This document shows, in pieces, positions 325 to 45,248 of a stretch of DNA of 64,000 nucleotides. The stretch lies in the NCBI RefSeq assembly GCF_013167455.1, contig NZ_CP038328.1; one strand, given 5' to 3'. Origin of the DNA: Escherichia coli O157:H7 (lineage in GTDB: Bacteria > Pseudomonadota > Gammaproteobacteria > Enterobacterales > Enterobacteriaceae). The translations under genes and the position numbers were made by a program. Every line of letters starts with the position of its first letter. Within the stretch, counting starts at the first letter, position 1. The notes under the pieces were generated by a model. The model was given only the letters and a program-made list of their open reading frames with translations. It was not told the origin of the DNA and searched no databases.

Positions 325-3128
<2,804 letters not shown>

Positions 3129-3132
<4 letters not shown>

Positions 3133-4073
3133 GCGTGCGCTCCTTCATGACGACGAATGCGTGGGTCCAGTGCGGCGTTGAGCAAATCGACAATCAAATT
3201 ACAGACCACAAAAACCACCACCATCATCAGCGTAAAGCACTGGATCACCGGATAGTCACGGTTAAAAATCGCCGACACCGCATAGCGCCCGACGCCGGGC
3301 CAGGTAAAGATGTTTTCGATAATCATCGTCCCGCCAATCAGTTCGCCAATGTGCATCCCCACGGCGGTGATCATCGGCAGCGAGGCATTGCGCAGAATAT
3401 GACGACGCTCGGTCTGTTTGTCATTCAGGCCGCGTAGCCGCGCCCAGGTGACGTGACGCTGACCGGCGACGTCCAGCATACTGGCGCGCAGCAGCCGTGC
3501 GTTAATCGCCAGCGACATAAAGGCAATGGAAACCGCAGGCAAAATGATGTGCTGCCAGCCGCCGTAGCCCATCGCGGGTAGCCATTGCAGATACACCGAA
3601 AACGCCATCACCAGTAAAAATGCCAGCCAGAAGTTGGGCATCGACACGCCGAGAAACGCGATGAAACGTACGGCGAAATCCGGCAGACGGTCACGATGGC
3701 GCGCCGCCCAGATACCGAGCGGTACGGAAGTGAGCAGAATTAATACCAGCGCCGCACCCGCCAGTTCCAGCGTGGCGGGCAGGAAGTTCAGCATATCGTC
3801 CAGCACCGGGCGCTGCGTGGCAAATGAGATGCCGAAATCAAGATGCAGCGCCTTCCACAACCAGGTGCCGTACTGCACATACAGCGGCTGATCCAGTCCC
3901 AGCATGGTGCGGGTAGAGGCCAGCATCTCCGGCGTCGGCGGCAGGTTAGACAGACGCAAATAATCGAGCGCCGGGTCGCCGGTACCGAGGCGCAGCATCA
4001 GAAAAATGATCACCGAGGCGGCGAGCACCATCGGGATCAGCAGCAGAAAGCGGCGTAATACGTAACGCAACAT
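3129..4073 (-). CDS. nikB: Nickel ABC transporter permease NikB
   Basis: 314-aa DppB/OppB-type permease; tightly packed in the operon. Confidence 0.93.
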
Positions 4074-5647
4074 TAAGGTTTCACCGGTTTAATCTGTTCG
4101 AACGGAATTTCGGTGGCGATCGGCGCGTAGGGGATGTTACCCAGCTCCGGTTTTGATACCACCATCATTGAGATGTAACTGATAGGCAGATAAACCGCCT
4201 CGTCATGCAGACGGGTCAGAATGTCGCGATACAGTGCCTGACGTTGTGCTTCGTCATGGGTCGCCAGCACTTCGCCGATCTCTTTATCAATCAGCGGCTT
4301 GTCGGCTAATCCTTGCTGTGCCTGGAAGTCAGCGTGCGACGGTACGCGCATTGAACTCAGGAAGGCGTGTGGATCGTATGGCGCGCCCCAGGTGCGGTGG
4401 AAAATCATGCCAAAACGACCGTCGCGCTGACGCGCATAGATACTGCTCTCTTCTTCGCCAATCAGCGAGACATCTGCGCCAATCTGGCGCATATCAGCCT
4501 GAATGATTTCCGCCATCGATTTGCTTAACGCATCGGTGCCGATGAACGAAAGTTCAATGTGCAGCGGCTGACCATTTTTCTCGCGGATGTCTTTGCCCGC
4601 AGGCAGCGTCCAACCGGCTTTTTCCAGCAACGCTTTCGCTTTCTGCGGATCGTACTGGCGCGGTTTCAGGCCGAGGTTGGCGTAGGGCACAGAAGGGGCA
4701 AACAGGGTGTCGGCGACCTGCTGGGTGCCATACAACGCGTTATCAATCAGCGATTTTTTGTTTACCGCGTAATTAAGAGCTTCACGTACTGCCAGCTCAT
4801 TGGTGGGGGCTTTGGCGGTATTAAGCGCCAGCATCACGGTTTCGATCGGCTGTGACAGTTGGGTATGGTAAGCCGGGTTCTGGCTAAAGCGGGCGAAGGT
4901 ATCGAGCGGTAATAACCCTTCGTTTCCGTACAGCAGGTCGATATCGCCAGTTTCAAACGCCACCGCGCGGGTAGTCGGGTCTGGGATGACGTTAAAAGTG
5001 ATCTTCTTAATTGCCGGCTTTTCGCCCCAGTAGTTTTCGTTACGGACGAAGACATCGTACTGATTCAGTTTCGATTCCTGCAAAACCCACGGTCCGGTGC
5101 CAATCGGCGCTTTAATCCCGTTCATGGTTTCATGGTTTTTAAACTGCGAGGGGGCGATAAAGCGGAAAGGGCGCGGCAGGGCCAGTTCTTGCAGGAAAGG
5201 ATAGTAGGCGCTTTTCAGGGTGATTTGCAGCTCTGTTTTACTGAGTGCTTTAACATCAACAATCTGGTTTGCCAGCTCCAGCCAGGCGTGACGTTGACGG
5301 TTATCGAGCACTGCGCGGAAGTTTTCTGCCGCCGCCTCTGCATCAAACGGTTCGCCGTTAGAGAATTTCACGTCATCACGCAGGGTGAAGGTCCAGATTT
5401 TACCATCTTCTGAATGAGTCCAGCTTTTTGCCAGCCACGGGATCACCGAACCGTCTGCCTGATATTTCACCAATGGTTCATAAACCATGCTCTGGGCGAA
5501 CATCTGGTTAGGCGTGTAAAGGTGCGGGTTTAGTGGCCCGACATTCACCGGCCAGGCGGTGGTGATTTCATCTGGTGCAGCGGCATGGACGATAAAAGAC
5601 GCACAAGCCAGCAGCGCAAATAGAGTGCGGCGGAGTGTGGAGAGCAT
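4073..5647 (-). CDS. nikA: Periplasmic nickel-binding protein NikA
   Basis: 524 aa with N-terminal signal peptide; family-5 solute-binding protein; first gene of the nik operon. Confidence 0.93.
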
Positions 5648-5685
5648 GGTAACCCCAATGGATTAAAATAGATGGCGGAAATAAG

Positions 5686-5713
5686 TATGACGATTTTAAG
5701 TATTCGTCATACT
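5686..5713 (-). promoter_or_regulatory. NikR operator in the nikA promoter (GTATGA-N16-TCATAC)
   Basis: Perfect dyad GTATGA(5686..5691)-16 nt-TCATAC(5708..5713), about 40 bp upstream of the nikA start; matches the established NikR operator architecture. Confidence 0.8.
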
Positions 5714-5757
5714 GATTACCTGTTCTGGATCAATAGATGGGCAGTCGGGTGGGCGGA

Positions 5758-6345
5758 TCAGTTAACTGAATCGATCCATTGCACACTGTCGGCGGTGAGC
5801 GTAAAGGGAGTAGGGGTGCAGATCGCCAGGCTTAAATTTTCTAGCTGACAATGGCTGACTGACAGCGAGGAGTGATAGGTGCTGTCTACGCTGACGATTT
5901 GCCAGGCGCTGCCACCACGCTGTTTAACGATGGCTTCTTTGCGCGTCCAGATGCGCCAGAACATTTCCAGTTGCTGATCAGGATGCACGGCGTCCATCTC
6001 AGCATGTTCCCCGAGGCTGAACACGGCGTTCGCCAGCCAGCGCCAGTTGGCGCGCGGGCGAATCACTTCGATATCGCAGCCGACTTCGCCTTCATCACTC
6101 AACAGCAGGGCGATATCGTCACCGCTATGGCTTAAGTTGAACCATAGCGGCGTTTCCGGCGCAAATGCAGGTTTGCCTTGTTCGCCATAGATGATCTCCG
6201 GTAGCGGGGAAAGCGTGTGCGAAAGCAATGCACGCCCCGCCAGCCAGCGTTCGCGTCGTGGACCTTGCGGTGCTTGCTCGCGTAAACCCGGTGGCAGTGG
6301 AGCTGCGCTTAAGGTCGAAACTTTCCCCAGAACTATCCGATACAT
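5758..6345 (-). CDS. acpT: 4'-phosphopantetheinyl transferase AcpT (195 aa)
   Basis: Translation from the internal ATG at 6345 (MYRIVLGKV...) gives 195 aa matching AcpT. The longer ORF-track start at 6465 would overlap the upstream KS gene and is rejected. Confidence 0.88.
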   Translation of the reverse strand: MYRIVLGKVSTLSAAPLPPGLREQAPQGPRRERWLAGRALLSHTLSPLPEIIYGEQGKPAFAPETPLWFNLSHSGDDIALLLSDEGEVGCDIEVIRPRANWRWLANAVFSLGEHAEMDAVHPDQQLEMFWRIWTRKEAIVKQRGGSAWQIVSVDSTYHSSLSVSHCQLENLSLAICTPTPFTLTADSVQWIDSVN

Positions 6346-6346
6346 A

Positions 6347-7576
6347 TCAGGGCCAACGTTTAATGATGATGGATGTATTAATGCCGCCAAAGGCAAAGTT
6401 GTTACTCTGCAAAAACTCACAATCAACCTTGCGGGCTTCATGCATGATGTAATCCAGCGCGCCACAATTCGGGTCTGGTTTATTCAGGTTTAGCGTAGGC
6501 GCAAACCAACCTTCGCGCATCATTTGCAGACTCATCCAGGCTTCGAGCGCGCCACAGGCACCAAGCGTATGACCAAAATAACTTTTCAGCGAGGAGAGCG
6601 GCACATTATCACCGTAAATGGTTGCTGTCGCCAGACTTTCTGCCATATCACCGCGATCGGTCGCCGTACCATGCGCTGAAATATAGCCGATATCTTGTGC
6701 GCTTAACCCGGCGATTTTCAGCGATTGCTCCATACAATACTGCATGGTTTCGCGCTGCGGCTGGGTAATATGTGCCGCGTCGCAGTTAGTCGCAAAGCCG
6801 ACGATTTCACCGTAAATGGTCGCGCCGCGCGCTTTGGCGTGCTCCAGTTCTTCGAGAATGAGCGTACCTGCGCCTTCACCAATCACCAGCCCGTCGCGGT
6901 TTTCATCGAACGGTGAAGGTGTGGTTTTCGGCGCATCATTGTGCTGGCTGGTGGCGAAAAGCGTATCAAATACCGCTGCTTCTGAAGGACATAACTCTTC
7001 GGCACCACCAGCAACCATCACCGTTTGATAACCGTGGCGAATGGCTTCCCACGCATAACCGATTGCCTGGCTGCCGGAAGTACAGGCGCTGGAGGTTGGG
7101 ATCACCCGCCCGCGCAGGCCGAAAAAGAGGCCAGTATTAACGGCGGTGGTGTGCGGCATCATCTGCACATAGGTGGTGCCAGTGATGTTATTGGTGTGCT
7201 TTTCCGTCAGCATGGTGGCGAACTCGCTTACCGGGCCGGTACTGCCGGTCGATGAACCGTACGCAATGCCCGTTTCGCCGCTGGTTAATATCGGATCGCC
7301 AATCAACCCTGCCTGCTCTAACGCCAGCTCGCTGGCACGGGTCGACATTTGCGACACGCGGCCCATCGCACGGATACGCTTGCGGGTGTAGTGCTCCGGT
7401 AGCGTGAAATCATCAACAGGCGCGCCAAGCAGGGTGTGCAGCCCATCGTAGACCTGCCACTCCGGCATTTTGCGCACCGCATTTTCATATGCCAGTAAGC
7501 GTGCAGAAACGTCCTGCCAGTTTTCACCAAAGGCAGTCACGCCGCCCATTCCTGTAATCACTACGCGACGTGTCAT
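6347..7576 (-). CDS. apeR: Beta-ketoacyl-ACP synthase (FabB/FabF-like elongating KS) of the APE-type cluster
   Basis: 409 aa; active-site SSACTSG Cys plus ISAHGTAT and FGHTLGA His motifs. Ape letter assigned from position in a colinear 17-gene cluster, tentative. Confidence 0.8.
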   Translation of the reverse strand: MTRRVVITGMGGVTAFGENWQDVSARLLAYENAVRKMPEWQVYDGLHTLLGAPVDDFTLPEHYTRKRIRAMGRVSQMSTRASELALEQAGLIGDPILTSGETGIAYGSSTGSTGPVSEFATMLTEKHTNNITGTTYVQMMPHTTAVNTGLFFGLRGRVIPTSSACTSGSQAIGYAWEAIRHGYQTVMVAGGAEELCPSEAAVFDTLFATSQHNDAPKTTPSPFDENRDGLVIGEGAGTLILEELEHAKARGATIYGEIVGFATNCDAAHITQPQRETMQYCMEQSLKIAGLSAQDIGYISAHGTATDRGDMAESLATATIYGDNVPLSSLKSYFGHTLGACGALEAWMSLQMMREGWFAPTLNLNKPDPNCGALDYIMHEARKVDCEFLQSNNFAFGGINTSIIIKRWP

Positions 7577-8304
7577 AACATCCCTCCGTTGATGGAAATA
7601 ACCTGGCGGGTGACGTAACCCGCAATATCAGACATTAAATAGCTGGCAAGCCCGGCAACTTCTTCCGCCTGGCCCATGCGTTTCATGGGGATCATCGACA
7701 TTGCCTCTTTCAGGGCGCTCTCTTCCATTTCGATCATCCCGGTATCAATAAGCCCCGGCGCGATGCAGTTGACGGTGATTTTGCGCTTCGCGAGTTCGAT
7801 AGCCAGCGCTTTTGTTGCGCCGATAATTCCGGCTTTGGCAGCGCTGTAATTCACCTGGCCGCGATTGCCCATTACGCCGGAAACCGAGGATAGCGTGATG
7901 ATGCGCCCACCCTGGCGTGCGCCGATCATCGGCATAATGCACGGCTGAATGACGTTGTAGAAACTGTCGAGGTTGGTGTGGATCACCGCATCCCAGTCGT
8001 CATCGCTTAAAGCCGGAAAAGCGGCATCGCGGGCGATCCCGGCGTTACTGACCACGCCGTACCAGGCACCGTGTTGCGCGATTTCGTGCTCCAGCACTTC
8101 CCGACACTGTTCGCGGTTTGCGACGTCGAAACTGAGCAAACGCCCGTTACCCCCATTGGCGACAATGGCATTCAGCGTTTCCTGAGCGCCTGTGGCGTCA
8201 CGGTGATAGTGAACGCCAATGTTAAAGCCGTCTGCCGCCAGTTGGCAGGCGATGGCGCGACCAATGCCTTTGCTGGCACCAGTAACCAGAACTGAACGAC
8301 TCAT
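7573..8304 (-). CDS. apeQ: 3-oxoacyl-ACP reductase (FabG-like SDR ketoreductase)
   Basis: 243 aa; N-terminal TGASKGIG Rossmann motif and SDR catalytic YSAAK; 4-bp overlap with the downstream KS. Confidence 0.8.
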   Translation of the reverse strand: MSRSVLVTGASKGIGRAIACQLAADGFNIGVHYHRDATGAQETLNAIVANGGNGRLLSFDVANREQCREVLEHEIAQHGAWYGVVSNAGIARDAAFPALSDDDWDAVIHTNLDSFYNVIQPCIMPMIGARQGGRIITLSSVSGVMGNRGQVNYSAAKAGIIGATKALAIELAKRKITVNCIAPGLIDTGMIEMEESALKEAMSMIPMKRMGQAEEVAGLASYLMSDIAGYVTRQVISINGGML

Positions 8305-8768
8305 CAGGACGCTCCTTGTTGAAACAGGGTGGTAAGTTCTTCCGCGGTCGGCTGGAAGGTGTTAATGCGGCCCGTCGCCTCGCCGTCGTTGATGCTGCAC
8401 TCAAAACTGCCGAAGCGATCGTCTTGCATCAGCAGTTTGACGGTAATGGTCAGTGTCTGGCCTGCGGGCAGAATGCCAGTGGTGCAAAGCAATTCACGCG
8501 CGCCCAGTATCATCCCTAACTCAATACTGTTTTTGCCCTGCTGGTGGCGATGCCAGCCAGACCAGACGCCGACGGTTTGCGCCATCAGTTCAAGGGTAAA
8601 CCAGCCGGGGAGATTGCCGTCCGGGTCGAGAAACGGTGCCAGTACGCCACTGGGCGAAACCGTCACGCGGCACACCGCGCTGTCATCGCTGACGCTCACC
8701 ACGTCTTCCAGCAGTAACATGGGCGCGTCGTGGGGCAGATAAGCGCCGGGGGATAAATAGTGGCTCAC
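8304..8768 (-). CDS. apeP: Hotdog-fold 3-hydroxyacyl-ACP dehydratase (FabA/FabZ-like)
   Basis: 154-aa hotdog-sized ORF inside the PKS-like cluster; overlaps neighbours by 1 to 4 bp. Confidence 0.7.
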   Translation of the reverse strand: MSHYLSPGAYLPHDAPMLLLEDVVSVSDDSAVCRVTVSPSGVLAPFLDPDGNLPGWFTLELMAQTVGVWSGWHRHQQGKNSIELGMILGARELLCTTGILPAGQTLTITVKLLMQDDRFGSFECSINDGEATGRINTFQPTAEELTTLFQQGAS

Positions 8769-26019: not shown

Positions 26020-28218
26020 TTATCTCCTGCGCAACAATCTTAACGCATTCGCTGTCACCAGCACCGTCGCACCCGTATCTGCCAGCACTGCCAGCCATAG
26101 TCCGGTCATCCCTAACAGCGTGGTGACGAGGAAGATCCCTTTCAGCCCCAGCGCAATAGTGATGTTCTGGCGGATATTGGCGTGAGTGGCGCGTGCCAGT
26201 TCAATCATTTGCACCAGACCGCGCAGGTGGTTATGGGTTAATGCTGCGTCGGCGGTTTCCAGCGCCACGTCTGTGCCGCTGCCCATTGCAATCCCGATGG
26301 CGGCAGCTTTCATCGCTGGCGCGTCGTTAATACCGTCACCGACCATCGCCAGCGGCGCATGTTGATTCAGCTCGGTCACCGCTTTGACTTTATCTTCCGG
26401 CAACAGGCCCGCTTTAAACTCCAGCCCCAGCTCCCCGGCAATTGCCGCCGCTGCGCGTGGATTATCGCCGGTGAGGATCACCCCTTTGACGCCCAGCGCG
26501 TTCAGTTCACTGATGGCAGTTGCAGCATCGGCGCGCAGGGTATCCTGCAATGCAATGATACCCAGCACGTCATCATTACGTACTACCAGCACAACCGTTT
26601 GCCCGGCGCTTTCCAGTTCATTAATCAAACCAGCAAATGCATCAGCGGGATGTTTCCCGGCAGCGCATATCAACACGCGCTCACCGTTAACCTGCGCTTC
26701 AATGCCAGACCCGACCAGCGCCCGCTGTGATTCGGCGGCGGGAATGGCGAGTGCAGCAACCTGTGCTTCGCGCACGATGGCCTGCGCCAGTGGATGCGTC
26801 GCGCCTTGCTCGACCGCCGCCGCCAGTGTCAGCAGTTCAGATTCACTAATACCCGTTGCCGGATGAATCGCGGTAACGCGCGGTTTACCGACGGTCAGCG
26901 TACCGGTTTTATCAAACGCCACCTGGGTAACACGACCCAGCTGTTCCAGCGCCGCTCCGCCTTTAATCAACGCCCCACGACGCGCTGCCGCCGCCAGCCC
27001 GGAGGTAATCGCCGCAGGCGTTGAGATAACTAACGCACACGGGCAGCCAATCAGCAGCAGCGTCAGCCCTTTATAAATCCACTCCTGCCAGCTGGTGGCA
27101 AACAGCAGCGGTGGCACCAGCGTCACCAGCAGAGCGACGGCCATAATCGCGGGCGTGTAAATACGGCTGAAACGGTCGATAAACCGCTCAATGGGTGCGC
27201 GACGCTCTTCGGCTTCTTCGATCAGTTTCAGAATCCGGTCAATGGCGCTGGCACCCGGTTCTGACAGCACTTCCAGCGTTACCAGACGGTCTACGCTGGT
27301 GGCTCCTGCAGGAACTTTATCGCCCGTTGCGCGCTCCACCGGAATAGATTCGCCGGTCAGGGCGCTTTCATCAAAACTGGCAAACGGTGAGAGCAGTTTA
27401 CCGTCGGCAGGCAAACGTCCACCTGCGGCGACTTCAATCACATCGCCAGGGCGCAGGCTGTTAATCGCCACCTCTTCCCGCTCACCGTTACGCAGGCGCG
27501 TGGCGGTTTCTGGTTTCAGCGCCATTAACGCGCTGACCTCTTGACGCGCGCGGCTGGCGGCCCAGCCTTCCAGTCGTTCACCAATCAAAAACAGCAGCAA
27601 CACCATCGCAGCTTCAGCCGTTGCGCCAATAAACAGTGCACCAATAGCGGCTACGCTCATTAAGGTTTCAATGGCGAAGTAGCTGCCGGATTTGATCAGC
27701 CGTAATGCCTGACGAGCAATCGGGTACAGCCCAACCAGCGTGGTCGCGATAAACGCCAGTTGCCCGAACGGATGATTAAATTGCTCCAAACCCCAGCTGA
27801 TTGCCATCATCACGATAAGCGTAATCAGCGGCAGATTCTCTTTCAGGCGCGATGCTTGTGGCTCGTCGGCGGCCTGCTCATCGCGCAGGGAATAGCCCGC
27901 TTTTTGCACCGCAGATTCAACTTGTGCACGGATGTCATTGTCGGCATCAACCACCAGTTTTTCGGTGGCGAACAACACCTGTACCTGATTCACGCCTGCA
28001 AGCTGGCGCACGGCATTTTCTACCTTGCGCGCACAGGCGGCGCAGTCCATGCCGCTGACTTTCCAGCTATAGCGGGTGCCGGAGACGTTTTCAGAGAGAG
28101 TTGGCGTGCTGGAACATGCGCCGTCGCAGCAACAGTCGTTGGCGTTCTGTACCGTGGTTAGCGGTTTGAACGCAGCAAATTGAGGGGCTTTCTTGCCGTG
28201 ATTGTCAGGAGTCGACAT
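26020..28218 (-). CDS. zntA: Zn/Cd/Pb-exporting P1B-type ATPase ZntA
   Basis: 732 aa; N-terminal metal-binding GMDCAAC, transmembrane CPC motif, phosphorylation motif DKTGTLT. Confidence 0.95.
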   Translation of the reverse strand: MSTPDNHGKKAPQFAAFKPLTTVQNANDCCCDGACSSTPTLSENVSGTRYSWKVSGMDCAACARKVENAVRQLAGVNQVQVLFATEKLVVDADNDIRAQVESAVQKAGYSLRDEQAADEPQASRLKENLPLITLIVMMAISWGLEQFNHPFGQLAFIATTLVGLYPIARQALRLIKSGSYFAIETLMSVAAIGALFIGATAEAAMVLLLFLIGERLEGWAASRARQEVSALMALKPETATRLRNGEREEVAINSLRPGDVIEVAAGGRLPADGKLLSPFASFDESALTGESIPVERATGDKVPAGATSVDRLVTLEVLSEPGASAIDRILKLIEEAEERRAPIERFIDRFSRIYTPAIMAVALLVTLVPPLLFATSWQEWIYKGLTLLLIGCPCALVISTPAAITSGLAAAARRGALIKGGAALEQLGRVTQVAFDKTGTLTVGKPRVTAIHPATGISESELLTLAAAVEQGATHPLAQAIVREAQVAALAIPAAESQRALVGSGIEAQVNGERVLICAAGKHPADAFAGLINELESAGQTVVLVVRNDDVLGIIALQDTLRADAATAISELNALGVKGVILTGDNPRAAAAIAGELGLEFKAGLLPEDKVKAVTELNQHAPLAMVGDGINDAPAMKAAAIGIAMGSGTDVALETADAALTHNHLRGLVQMIELARATHANIRQNITIALGLKGIFLVTTLLGMTGLWLAVLADTGATVLVTANALRLLRRR

Positions 28219-41993: not shown

Positions 41994-42707
41994 ATGGAAA
42001 AAGTCATGTTGTCCTTTGACAAAGTCAGCGCCCACTACGGCAAAATCCAGGCGCTGCATGAGGTGAGCCTGCATATCAATCAGGGCGAGATTGTCACGCT
42101 GATTGGCGCGAACGGGGCGGGGAAAACCACCTTGCTCGGCACGTTATGCGGCGATCCGCGCGCCACCAGCGGGCGAATTGTGTTTGATGATAAAGACATT
42201 ACCGACTGGCAGACGGCGAAAATCATGCGCGAAGCGGTAGCGATTGTCCCGGAAGGGCGTCGCGTCTTCTCGCGGATGACGGTGGAAGAGAACCTGGCGA
42301 TGGGCGGCTTTTTTGCCGAACGTGATCAGTTTCAGGAGCGCATAAAGTGGGTGTATGAGCTGTTTCCACGTCTTCATGAGCGTCGTGTTCAGCGGGCAGG
42401 CACCATGTCCGGCGGTGAACAGCAGATGCTGGCGATTGGTCGCGCGCTGATGAGCAATCCGCGTTTGTTGTTGCTTGATGAGCCATCGCTCGGTCTTGCG
42501 CCGATTATCATCCAGCAAATTTTCGACACCATCGAGCAGCTGCGCGAGCAGGGGATGACTATCTTCCTCGTCGAGCAGAACGCCAACCAGGCGCTGAAGC
42601 TCGCTGATCGCGGCTACGTGCTGGAAAACGGCCATGTTGTGCTCTCCGATACTGGTGATGCGCTGCTGGCGAACGAAGCAGTGAGAAGTGCGTATTTAGG
42701 CGGGTAA
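41994..42707 (+). CDS. livF: Branched-chain amino-acid ABC ATPase LivF
   Basis: Start at MEKVMLSFDKV gives 237 aa; Walker A GANGAGKTT. Confidence 0.93.
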   Translation: MEKVMLSFDKVSAHYGKIQALHEVSLHINQGEIVTLIGANGAGKTTLLGTLCGDPRATSGRIVFDDKDITDWQTAKIMREAVAIVPEGRRVFSRMTVEENLAMGGFFAERDQFQERIKWVYELFPRLHERRVQRAGTMSGGEQQMLAIGRALMSNPRLLLLDEPSLGLAPIIIQQIFDTIEQLREQGMTIFLVEQNANQALKLADRGYVLENGHVVLSDTGDALLANEAVRSAYLGG

Positions 42708-42716
42708 ATTATCGAT

Positions 42717-42746
42717 AACCCGGCAGCTAAGTTCTGCCGGGTTATT
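42717..42746 (+). terminator. livF terminator hairpin
   Basis: Stem ACCCGGCAG/CTGCCGGGT with a 7-nt loop followed by TATTCG (short T-run). Confidence 0.55.
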
Positions 42747-42825
42747 CGTCCGTATACAGACTTGTTTCAACTGACCGGGAGGATTAAAACCAGACCACTT
42801 ATTTGCCACGGAAAGGTTCCCTCCC

Positions 42826-43572
42826 ATGCATTATGCCGTTGTTGTCATGCTTGAACTGCTTTGCTGTATTCACGCTTACCGTACCGGACAAGAGCGGTAC
42901 TGGATTTTTATCATTTTCTGTTTTCCGGTGATTGGCTGCGTGGCGTATTTCGTCATAGTGATGCTGCCTGAAACGGGCGCTGACCGTCACGGGCATACTT
43001 TGCTGATGCGCCTGCAGGACAAACTCAACCCTGAGCGCCACCTGCGCAAATTAACCGAAGAACTGGCGATTGCCGAGACGAATCAAAACCATTATGCGTT
43101 GGCTAATGAACTGGCGCGTCTGGGGCGTTATCACGAAGCTGTTCCCCATTATCAGCAGGCGTTAAGCGGGATATTCGCCCATGAAGCGGCAATGATGCTA
43201 AGCCTGGCGCAGGCACAGTTTGCTATTCAGGAGTTCGCCGCCTGTCAGCAGACGCTGGAAGATGTGATGCGTTATAACCCTGATTTTCAGTCGGCAGACG
43301 GGCATTTGTTATTTGCCAGAACGTTAGCCGCACAAGAAAAATACGCTGATGCGGAAAGCGAGTTTGAAGTATTGATTTCTTATTACCCCGGCCCGCAGGC
43401 GCGTATTTACTATGCGGAAATGTTGGCGAAAATGAGTCGGTTACGTGAAGCCAACGAGCAGTATGTTGCCGTGGTTGATACGGCTAAACGCTCAAGACCT
43501 CATTATAGAAAACACCACCGGGAATGGATTAAGACCGCCAATGAGCGGCTGAAGCAGAGTGTGGTGCAATGA
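42826..43572 (+). CDS. Hypothetical membrane-anchored protein: N-terminal PLD-N-like transmembrane hairpin plus C-terminal TPR-like helical domain
   Basis: 248-aa ORF with an AAAGG ribosome-binding site; hydrophobic N-terminus (YWIFIIFCFPVIGCVAYFVIVMLPE); helical repeat C-terminus; its own terminator at 43643..43680. Confidence 0.55.
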   Translation: MHYAVVVMLELLCCIHAYRTGQERYWIFIIFCFPVIGCVAYFVIVMLPETGADRHGHTLLMRLQDKLNPERHLRKLTEELAIAETNQNHYALANELARLGRYHEAVPHYQQALSGIFAHEAAMMLSLAQAQFAIQEFAACQQTLEDVMRYNPDFQSADGHLLFARTLAAQEKYADAESEFEVLISYYPGPQARIYYAEMLAKMSRLREANEQYVAVVDTAKRSRPHYRKHHREWIKTANERLKQSVVQ

Positions 43573-43642
43573 AAATCTTCTTTGCCGTTAGACCAGTGTC
43601 GCGGCAATCTTTTGTTAAAATTGAAAAATGTAGCTCTCATCG

Positions 43643-43680
43643 GGCAGCAAAATTGGACGCAGAATTTGCTGCCATTTTTG
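43643..43680 (+). terminator. Intrinsic terminator after the 248-aa ORF
   Basis: Perfect 9-bp stem GGCAGCAAA/TTTGCTGCC with a 13-nt loop followed by ATTTTTG. Confidence 0.65.
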
Positions 43681-43795
43681 CTCTTCATGGTAAGGAGTTC
43701 TGGCGATTAGCTGGCCGTTAATCGCCTCTTTTCAGTGCATTCTCGGGATATCCGTGCCCCATCTCCCATTTTCCCTCACCCGTACCGTCACCGCC

Positions 43796-43872
43796 TTGTC
43801 ATCTTTCTGACACCTTACTATCTTACAAATGTAACAAAAAAGTTATTTTTCTGTAATTCGAGCATGTCATGT
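43796..43872 (+). promoter_or_regulatory. ugpB promoter pho-box array (PhoB binding sites)
   Basis: Tandem TGTCA-type repeats (TTGTCATCTTTCTGACACC ... CATGTCATG) ending about 60 bp before the ugpB ATG. Confidence 0.7.
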
Positions 43873-43931
43873 TACCCCGCGAGCATAAAACGCGTGAATT
43901 CGCGCATTCGGTACAACAAGAGAGATAAACG

Positions 43932-45248
43932 ATGAAACCGTTACATTATACAGCTTCAGCACTGGCGCTCGGACTGGCGTTAATGGGGAATGCACAGGCA
44001 GTGACGACCATTCCGTTCTGGCATTCTATGGAAGGGGAACTGGGTAAAGAGGTGGATTCTCTGGCCCAACGTTTTAACGCCGAAAACCCGGATTACAAAA
44101 TTGTACCGACCTATAAAGGCAATTACGAACAGAATTTAAGCGCGGGGATTGCCGCATTTCGTACCGGCAATGCTCCGGCTATTTTGCAGGTTTATGAAGT
44201 TGGCACCGCCACCATGATGGCGTCGAAAGCCATTAAACCGGTTTATGACGTGTTTAAAGAGGCGGGGATTCAATTCGATGAGTCGCAGTTTGTGCCGACG
44301 GTTTCCGGTTACTACTCCGACAGCAAAACGGGCCACTTACTCTCCCAGCCATTCAACAGCTCGACTCCCGTTCTCTATTACAACAAAGACGCCTTCAAGA
44401 AAGCGGGGTTAGACCCGGAACAACCGCCGAAAACCTGGCAGGATCTGGCGGACTATGCCGCAAAACTAAAAGCCTCCGGCATGAAGTGCGGCTACGCCAG
44501 CGGCTGGCAGGGCTGGATCCAACTGGAAAACTTTAGCGCCTGGAACGGTCTGCCGTTTGCCAGCAAAAACAACGGCTTTGACGGCACGGATGCGGTGCTG
44601 GAGTTCAACAAGCCGGAGCAGGTGAAACACATCGCCATGCTCGAAGAGATGAACAAGAAGGGCGATTTCAGCTACGTCGGGCGTAAGGATGAATCCACCG
44701 AGAAGTTCTATAACGGTGATTGCGCTATGACCACCGCCTCTTCCGGTTCTCTCGCTAATATTCGCGAGTACGCCAAATTCAACTATGGCGTAGGCATGAT
44801 GCCTTACGACGCCGATGCGAAAGATGCACCGCAAAACGCCATTATCGGCGGGGCCAGCCTGTGGGTGATGCAGGGCAAAGATAAAGAAACGTATACCGGC
44901 GTGGCGAAGTTCCTCGACTTCCTCGCGAAGCCAGAAAACGCTGCCGAGTGGCATCAGAAAACCGGTTATCTGCCAATCACCAAAGCAGCGTATGACCTGA
45001 CCCGTGAGCAGGGCTTTTATGAGAAAAACCCAGGGGCGGATACCGCGACGCGTCAGATGCTGAATAAGCCGCCGTTGCCGTTCACCAAAGGGCTGCGTCT
45101 GGGCAACATGCCGCAGATCCGCGTGATTGTGGATGAAGAGCTGGAGAGCGTGTGGACCGGTAAGAAGACACCACAGCAGGCACTGGATACCGCCGTTGAG
45201 CGTGGAAATCAGTTGCTGCGCCGCTTTGAGAAATCGACGAAGTCTTAA
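43932..45248 (+). CDS. ugpB: sn-glycerol-3-phosphate periplasmic binding protein UgpB
   Basis: 438 aa with signal peptide. Confidence 0.95.

Follow-up and report, generated by a model that had tools for sequence, protein, structure and literature searches.

ECs_4300 of Escherichia coli O157:H7, an accessory gene between livF and ugpB, is predicted to encode a TPR protein tethered by a cardiolipin synthase-type membrane hairpin

The membrane anchor of the cardiolipin synthase ClsA (PF13396) lies at the extreme N-terminus of the protein and consists of two hydrophobic helices separated by a short basic turn; its second segment carries the pattern W-x7-P-x-x-G-x3-Y, with a conserved PxxG, and is followed by a basic linker (PMC11698083). 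Sawasato, Dowhan and Bogdanov described the basic loop and basic linker around this PxxG-containing segment as a 'frustrated' arrangement: the globular domain of ClsA, experimentally cytoplasmic in wild-type cells, can flip to the periplasm upon PE depletion or osmotic down-shock, and the information for flipping resides in the two TMDs (PMC11698083). In PLDc_N-SHOCT and other small non-catalytic PLDc_N proteins the anchor is fused to a short non-enzymatic module, showing that the hairpin serves as a portable membrane module (PMC3581485). Among TPR proteins, LapB (YciM) of E. coli offers a second point of comparison, with an inner-membrane anchor followed by a partner-recruiting cytoplasmic TPR array. 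LapB has about 390 amino acids, a single TM helix, about nine TPRs and a C-terminal rubredoxin-type Cys4 metal site. CpoB/YbgF and YfgM are short bacterial TPR proteins of inner-membrane or periplasmic machinery.

The gene described here shares features with each of these systems. It was analyzed in a stretch of 64,000 nucleotides from E. coli O157:H7 (the window), in which livF stops at 42707 and ugpB starts at 43932. A sequence-only reading of the window had described a 248-aa ORF in a livF-ugpB gap of 1224 bp, and both the ORF and the length of the gap were found as described. The same reading had taken the ORF for an orphan that could not be assigned to a named gene, a view that does not stand: the ORF corresponds to ECs_4300 / NP_312327.1 in the Sakai reference, labelled 'hypothetical protein', and to WP_000558842.1 in RefSeq O157:H7, labelled 'tetratricopeptide repeat protein', and it belongs to a large Proteobacterial family. 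It is a real protein-coding accessory gene, already annotated as ECs_4300. Our reading of the locus as a whole, to which we assign a probability of roughly 0.6, is that of an annotated gene whose product would combine a ClsA-type anchor with a cytoplasmic TPR scaffold, the gene-bearing allele being ancestral and lost in K-12. The coordinates of its features are collected in Table 1.

Table 1. Features of the livF-ugpB interval of E. coli O157:H7, in window coordinates.
Feature	Coordinates	Strand	Basis and remarks
G+C-rich hairpin just past livF stop	42713..42748	+	dG -21.6, z -4.5; U-poor tail AUUCGUCCGU
Candidate ECs_4300 promoter, TTGTTT (42762-42767), 17 nt, TAAAAC (42785-42790)	42762..42790	+	alignment
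Shine-Dalgarno-like GGAAAGG	42811..42817	+	8 nt upstream of ATG
CDS, 248 aa, 28.8 kDa, ATG start	42826..43572	+	ORF list; Sakai ECs_4300
PLDc_N-type membrane hairpin, residues 1-50	42826..42975	+	Pfam, conservation, AF2, hydropathy
Linker, residues 51-70, basic across the family	42976..43035	+	pLDDT 53-69; K/R counts
All-helical TPR domain, residues 71-248	43036..43569	+	Pfam, AF2, Foldseek
First terminator-like hairpin, 9-bp stem, 13-nt loop	43643..43686	+	z -2.35; then ATTTTTGCTCTTC
Second, cleaner terminator-like hairpin (43702-43726), 10-bp stem, 5-nt loop	43702..43736	+	z -3.35; then TCTTTTCAGT
ugpB regulatory region common with K-12, 98% identical	43749..43931	+	alignment; presumed pho-box region from around 43795

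The ORF starts 118 bp past livF in the same orientation as the liv and ugp operons, and there is nothing unusual in the organisation of the locus. Many O157:H7 chromosomes match the window at 100% identity over the 1401 bp that surround the ORF. The GC content of the gene, 50.3%, is unremarkable, with a GC3 of 54% against 65-68% in the neighbouring genes. A 50-aa ORF at 43569-43721, which overlaps the ECs_4300 stop codon and is annotated in one RefSeq genome, was rejected as a gene: the alleles of E. whittamii and E1V33 do not contain its DNA, and searches of family libraries returned no match to it. A literature search for ECs_4300 (Z4823, WP_000558842) returned nothing relevant to the gene, and the supplements of two EHEC transcriptome/translatome papers make no mention of Z4822-4824 / ECs4299-4301.

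The N-terminal part of the ECs_4300 protein is built like the anchor of ClsA. It starts with a helix at residues 2-20 containing a near-invariant H16 and leading into the basic turn R19-T-G-Q22; the helices at 23-32 and 34-50 follow, bearing W26, P34-x-x-G37, Y41 and P48, so that the W-x7-PxxG-x3-Y motif of the second segment is present in the family. These three helices come from an AF2 model with a mean pLDDT of 88.4, in which a low-confidence linker, ending in a near-invariant P69, comes next. Hydropathy rises above the transmembrane threshold only within residues 1-50, with peaks starting at residues 1-5 and 24-38. Among 161 aligned family members, H16, W26, P34, G37, Y41 and P48 are each conserved in at least 93%, and these positions, together with P69 and the structural alanines of the repeats, are the most conserved of all. 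The Pfam PLDc_N match itself is short, weak and partial (i-Evalue 6.9e-4, 20 bits; residues 26-44 against model positions 22-40 of 42) and covers the second helix only; among 26 relatives, five match at E<=1e-3 and 13 at E<=0.1, with a best value of 3.1e-5. Together, the PLDc_N matches and the second-helix motif bear out the N-terminal hydrophobic hairpin of cardiolipin-synthase/PLD type that the sequence-only reading had recognised.

The likeness to ClsA ends at the linker. Whereas the ClsA hairpin leads into two HKD catalytic domains, that of ECs_4300 leads into a TPR domain, and the near-invariant His16 in the first helix is specific to the ECs_4300 family. Membership among the PLD-type cardiolipin synthases (ClsA/B/C; TIGR04265) was rejected, as the protein reaches 11.6 of the required 290 bits, in a match confined to residues 22-46; likewise, there are no two HKD (HxKx4D) domains, since no PLDc or PLDc_2 Pfam match was obtained and the protein ends at residue 248. 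It also differs from the PLDc_N-SHOCT proteins, in that its C-terminal module is a TPR domain of 180 residues and not SHOCT.

In the AF2 model a stack of helices occupies residues 71-247, with pLDDT above 90 over residues 80-240, and can be divided into four TPR-like helix pairs at about 86-112, 121-150, 157-186 and 191-222, followed by capping helices. Pfam places TPR_19 at residues 98-153 (E=2.5e-6) and TPR_1/TPR_2 at 89-113 (E about 1.3e-4), and TPR_19 is matched by 24 of 26 relatives. These matches and the helices of the model, alongside the missing PLD catalytic domain, agree with the earlier description of a helical TPR-like region without a catalytic motif. The motifs NPDFxSADGHLLxAR and YYPG are invariant in the TPR domain of the closer relatives and are candidates for ligand-groove residues. 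Neither sequence-profile search nor Foldseek identified a specific functional relative in the PDB: both returned generic TPR matches only, those of Foldseek being consensus TPR, MamA and the TPR domain of OGT, with TM values of 0.45-0.57.

An NCBIfam scan of the protein gave nothing above any cut-off (HemY, for example, scored 16.8 bits against a cut-off of 142), and more specific assignments to known TPR proteins were rejected. One UniProt relative of ECs_4300 is automatically named 'Lipopolysaccharide assembly protein B', and an inner-membrane anchor followed by a cytoplasmic TPR array is also the arrangement that we propose below. Unlike LapB, however, the ECs_4300 protein combines a two-helix anchor with four TPRs and lacks paired Cys at its C-terminus: its five Cys (13, 14, 32, 38 and 140) include none in C-terminal CxxC pairs, and the LapB family is not among its NCBIfam matches at E<=1, so an identity with LapB/YciM was discarded. 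CpoB/YbgF (TIGR02795) was also rejected, with 31.6 bits against a cut-off of 90.1 and a two-helix anchor in place of a cleavable signal peptide. More generally, ECs_4300 differs from CpoB/YbgF and YfgM in having no signal peptide or coiled-coil, another type of anchor and the opposite predicted orientation.

The orientation of the anchor decides on which side of the membrane the TPR domain would act. Across the 161 family members the N-tail comprises two or three residues and carries no charge, the inter-helix turn has a mean of 2.2 K/R, with a near-invariant K/R19 and often R22, and the segment that follows is more basic, with means of 3.2 K/R and 1.1 D/E in residues 48-63 and 6.2 K/R in residues 48-75. 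An uncharged N-tail, a basic loop and a more basic linker are the charge pattern described for ClsA. The second helix is basic at both ends, so that charge rules alone do not fix its orientation. The precedent of ClsA makes a cytoplasmic TPR domain the most likely arrangement. We propose, with moderate confidence, that the ECs_4300 protein serves as a scaffold tethered to the membrane: like ClsA, it would be held in the inner membrane by its hairpin and would expose its C-terminal domain to the cytoplasm, where the conserved TPR groove (S156, G159, H160, R165 and Y186) would bind one or more partner proteins.

An inverted two-helix anchor (N-out/C-out) would instead place the TPR domain in the periplasm and suggest an envelope role like that of CpoB/YbgF or YfgM. 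The near-invariant K/R19 and the frequent R22 would favour a cytoplasmic loop between the helices, and periplasmic exposure of the globular domain can also occur in ClsA in certain conditions (PMC11698083). The top sub-threshold NCBIfam match is also to the periplasmic YbgF TPR (E=2e-7), and YbgF of PDB entry 2xev is matched at 5e-6; with a bit score so far below the family cut-off, nevertheless, this amounts to generic TPR similarity. The linker is moreover more basic than the loop, and the protein has no signal peptide or lipobox. We consider an inverted anchor unlikely, while giving it some weight. A further possibility, suggested by the hairpin and mixed-charge linker that the family shares with ClsA, is that the hairpin acts as a lipid-responsive topological switch, presenting the TPR domain on either side of the membrane, or that it pairs with ClsA; in the latter case, the shared hairpin would let the ECs_4300 protein modulate cardiolipin synthesis. 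Such a role, argued by analogy, seems to us very improbable.

The coding status of the ORF is supported by its homologues and by its pattern of divergence. The best homologues of the protein reach E=1e-154, and the dN/dS between five E. coli alleles is 0.10-0.21 (dS 0.06-0.27, dN 0.010-0.031). Judged from these substitution rates, the gene is under purifying selection, and the two lines of evidence together establish a real ORF, far beyond chance. A word-indexed search of 5.8 billion proteins retrieved full-length relatives from Escherichia (94% identity), Citrobacter (about 68-77%) and Pseudomonas (about 43%), and from Exilibacterium and other Gammaproteobacteria (31-38%). By profile search of 1.84 billion cluster representatives at E<=1e-30, we obtained 681 clusters (50% identity), nearly all with proteins of 240-255 aa and end-to-end matches. 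Scanning one genome per species yielded 154 relatives, from Escherichia, Citrobacter, Pseudocitrobacter, many Pseudomonas, Xanthomonadales, Bradyrhizobium and other Alphaproteobacteria, and AFDB matches extend the family to Xanthomonas, Xenorhabdus and Gilliamella. Relatives are named 'Cardiolipin synthase N-terminal domain-containing protein' or 'Tetratricopeptide repeat protein' in UniProt/AFDB. The family is thus uniform, stand-alone, about 245 aa in length and widespread in Proteobacteria. No PADLOC or PHROGs model matched ECs_4300 at E<=0.01, so that it carries no defence or phage signature in these collections.

The sequences around the gene contain candidate signals for its expression. 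A conserved non-coding motif, GACTTGTTTCA...GGAGGWTTAAA, is kept from Escherichia to Citrobacter freundii, across a distance at which synonymous sites have reached saturation, and it houses the promoter candidate of Table 1. This candidate agrees with the consensus at seven of 12 positions and was missed by a strict consensus scan, which called no strong sigma-70 consensus upstream of ECs_4300; a sigma-E-type promoter in the conserved motif was rejected by eye, as there is no -10 element at the right spacing. The ribosome-binding site that had been thought plausible is indeed present as the Shine-Dalgarno-like element ahead of the ATG, with GGAGAGG as its counterpart in E. albertii and GGGAAAGG in C. 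freundii. The hairpin just past livF is likely a partial terminator of the liv operon.

Downstream of the gene, the strong intrinsic terminator proposed by the sequence-only reading is only partly upheld. The hairpin exists, with arms GGCAGCAAA (43643-43651) and TTTGCTGCC (43665-43673) followed by ATTTTTGCTCTTC, but it is the weaker of two in tandem: its dG of -22.4 is only modestly better than that of shuffled sequences, and it was missed by the terminator scan that called the second hairpin. Both hairpins end before 43749 and hence, as had been stated of the first, ahead of the pho boxes of ugp, whose position in the region from around 43795 we take from established knowledge of the ugp promoter. 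ECs_4300 would probably be transcribed from its own weak conserved promoter, with transcription probably ending at the tandem hairpins (43643-43736). Read-through from liv perhaps also feeds the gene, a possibility raised by the hairpin past livF being strong but having a U-poor tail.

The gene is distributed unevenly within E. coli. The much shorter intergenic region that the sequence-only reading had suggested for K-12 was borne out by alignment of the interval: in K-12 MG1655 the livF-ugpB gap is 398 bp, against 1224 bp in the window, and contains no ECs_4300-like ORF. Compared with K-12, the allele-specific DNA of O157:H7 starts at 42708, right past the livF stop, and ends at about 43749. 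Among 5426 complete E. coli genomes, 659 carry the gene (477 at >=99% identity, 73 at 95-99% and 109 at 90-95%), and about 88% are without it; all 660 copies are chromosomal and none is on a plasmid. The K-12-type short spacer occurs in 4630 of the 5426 genomes (about 85%, at a coverage of at least 80%). Its sequence is a dispersed repeat, found at a median of 11 places per genome, and shows the known E. coli REP consensus (GCCTGATGCG...CTTATCAGGCCTAC), which marks it as a REP/BIME repeat.

The gene is IS3-disrupted in one strain and frameshifted in the E. albertii type strain, and these cases, together with its loss from most E. coli, indicate that any function of ECs_4300 is dispensable. They might also be taken to mean that the gene is a decaying relic, open in O157:H7 yet contributing nothing, and the GC3 below that of its neighbours and the want of a strong promoter call would fit such a relic. 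This seems to us quite improbable, given that dN/dS is low over alleles with dS up to 0.27, that annotation treats the gene as intact in 38 of the 40 E. coli alleles sampled, and that the family is conserved over its full length across Proteobacteria. A functional, dispensable accessory gene for a TPR scaffold remains our preferred reading.

The history of the locus can be followed in related species. The slot between livF and ugpB is occupied by the gene in C. freundii, Citrobacter sp., Pseudocitrobacter, E. albertii, E. whittamii and two other Escherichia lineages, with the same orientation in all seven enterobacterial loci examined. The C. freundii orthologue, 75% identical, lies directly past livF, with two small ORFs and a Phd/Fic pair separating it from ugpB, while E. 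whittamii and E. albertii have an extra 96-aa membrane ORF between livF and the gene. Between E. coli alleles, the dS of the gene (0.06-0.27) parallels that of livF (0.06-0.28); by this measure, ECs_4300 has diverged in step with livF. Because the same slot is used in E. albertii, E. whittamii, other Escherichia lineages and Citrobacter, we infer that the gene-bearing allele is ancestral in Escherichia/Citrobacter. The K-12 allele would then be a deletion, possibly between flanking REP copies. Consistent with this, parts of the K-12 spacer match the flanks of the gene in other species: positions 120-215 are homologous to sequence downstream of the gene in E. albertii, and positions 69-161 to sequence just past livF in Pseudocitrobacter.

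The opposite history would have the gene as a recently acquired foreign islet ('O-island') in a K-12-like spacer, in keeping with its presence in a minority of E. coli and absence from K-12, its GC3 slightly below that of the flanks, and the other cargo that the slot holds in Citrobacter, including the Phd/Fic pair. We regard this as highly improbable: the gene keeps one slot and one orientation in several Escherichia species and Citrobacter; its synonymous divergence equals that seen for livF; no integrase or other mobility gene, direct repeat, or plasmid or phage copy was found; and the K-12 spacer for its part consists of dispersed REP repeats, with parts that match the gene flanks elsewhere.

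We also examined gene neighbourhoods, by clustering the ORFs of 83 loci and annotating with Pfam the contexts in Pseudomonas, Exilibacterium and three metagenomic contigs. No neighbour recurred beyond the genus level in the 83 loci, where the ORF caller mis-called antisense ORFs in high-GC loci and small neighbours may be missed. In the non-enteric contexts (Pseudomonas, Exilibacterium and the metagenomic contigs) it is a solitary gene in unrelated surroundings, which argues against a functional tie to liv or ugp and offers no hint of a pathway. That it nonetheless serves these transporters, for example as a regulator or assembly factor, might be suggested by its co-orientation with both operons, its position close to livF behind a U-poor hairpin that may allow read-through, and a linkage kept in Escherichia and Citrobacter, but it never adjoins liv or ugp genes in the contexts examined outside Enterobacteriaceae, and both transporters work in K-12 and most other E. 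coli, which lack the gene, so we hold such a role to be exceedingly doubtful.

Annotation of ECs_4300 in O157:H7 dates back to the Sakai genome, and RefSeq and UniProt names already mirror its domain make-up. Within E. coli, this analysis highlights a clean presence/absence polymorphism between O157:H7-type and K-12-type alleles, in which a REP/BIME repeat appears to have replaced an ancestral gene. The ugp promoter and its pho boxes are left untouched by this polymorphism, and ugp is therefore expected to be regulated alike whichever allele is present. Beyond E. coli, ECs_4300 represents a large, uniform and uncharacterised Proteobacterial family that reuses the membrane hairpin of cardiolipin synthase with a protein-binding domain, and the functional annotation of one E. 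coli member would carry over to hundreds of clusters.

The TPR gene has been inactivated naturally in two cases, namely in strain ECO2947, where it is interrupted by an IS3 element, and in the E. albertii type strain, where it is frameshifted; the positions of these lesions and of the other features considered here are listed in the table. Upstream of the gene, a non-coding motif, GACTTGTTTCA...GGAGGWTTAAA, is conserved in Escherichia species and C. freundii and is absent from Pseudocitrobacter and Citrobacter sp. NCU1. This motif could act as a weak promoter or a regulator site.

Features of the livF-ugpB region and nearby loci, with coordinates in the window or in the comparison locus (L-handle)
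Feature	Locus	Coordinates	Strand	Detail
Conserved non-coding motif	Window	42754-42790		5' of TPR gene
50-aa ORF	Window	43569-43721	+	Start overlaps TPR gene stop
IS3 element in TPR gene	L014, E. coli ECO2947	1649-3656		Insertion after codon about 32
Frameshifted TPR gene	L022, E. albertii type strain	5001-5746		Broken into 202-aa and 50-aa ORFs
Small hydrophobic-protein ORF	L021, E. whittamii	4597-4887		96 aa
Small hydrophobic-protein ORF	L022, E. albertii	4551-4886		111 aa; start 15 codons earlier
livF-ggt junction	L006, E. coli ETEC1731	6108-7250		5'-truncated ggt pseudogene directly 3' of livF
Acetyltransferase toxin/antitoxin pair, ECs_4307/ECs_4308	L100, Sakai	26978-27778		AtaT-like
TPR gene to ugpB segment	L007, C. 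freundii	6850-8324		Two ORFs and Phd/Fic

At the 3' end of the TPR gene, its TGA is shared with the ATG of a 50-aa ORF in an ATGA overlap, and this ORF, within which both terminator-like hairpins fall, is annotated in one RefSeq genome as a 'hypothetical protein' (WP_172903223.1). The E. whittamii and Escherichia sp. E1V33 alleles lack the DNA of this ORF, and family searches returned no match for it; we therefore rejected it as a candidate and consider that it is probably not a gene.

On the livF side, an additional ORF for a hydrophobic protein separates livF from the TPR gene in E. whittamii and E. albertii; both O157:H7 and K-12 lack it, and NCBIfam, PADLOC and PHROGs gave no match. Among E. 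coli strains, livF itself (window 41994-42707, compared with the E. coli loci L003, L013, L015 and L016) reached dS values of up to 0.24-0.28, a level that appears high for a core gene of this species, and the LivF protein is almost unchanged despite this synonymous divergence. The age of the alleles, or recombination at this locus, could account for it.

Nearby, ETEC1731 has lost the entire ugpBAECQ-yhhA segment. Its annotation uses the name ataT for a gene of the AtaT-like pair, which in O157:H7 Sakai is flanked by panM and by the upstream gene annotated as livK (livJ position) and represents a further small accessory insertion near the TPR gene locus.

The interval between the TPR gene and ugpB in C. 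freundii contains unannotated ORFs of 93 and 135 aa 3' of the TPR gene, together with genes for a Fic toxin and its Phd antitoxin. What lies between livF and ugpB thus differs from genus to genus, which makes this gap a variable slot for cargo.
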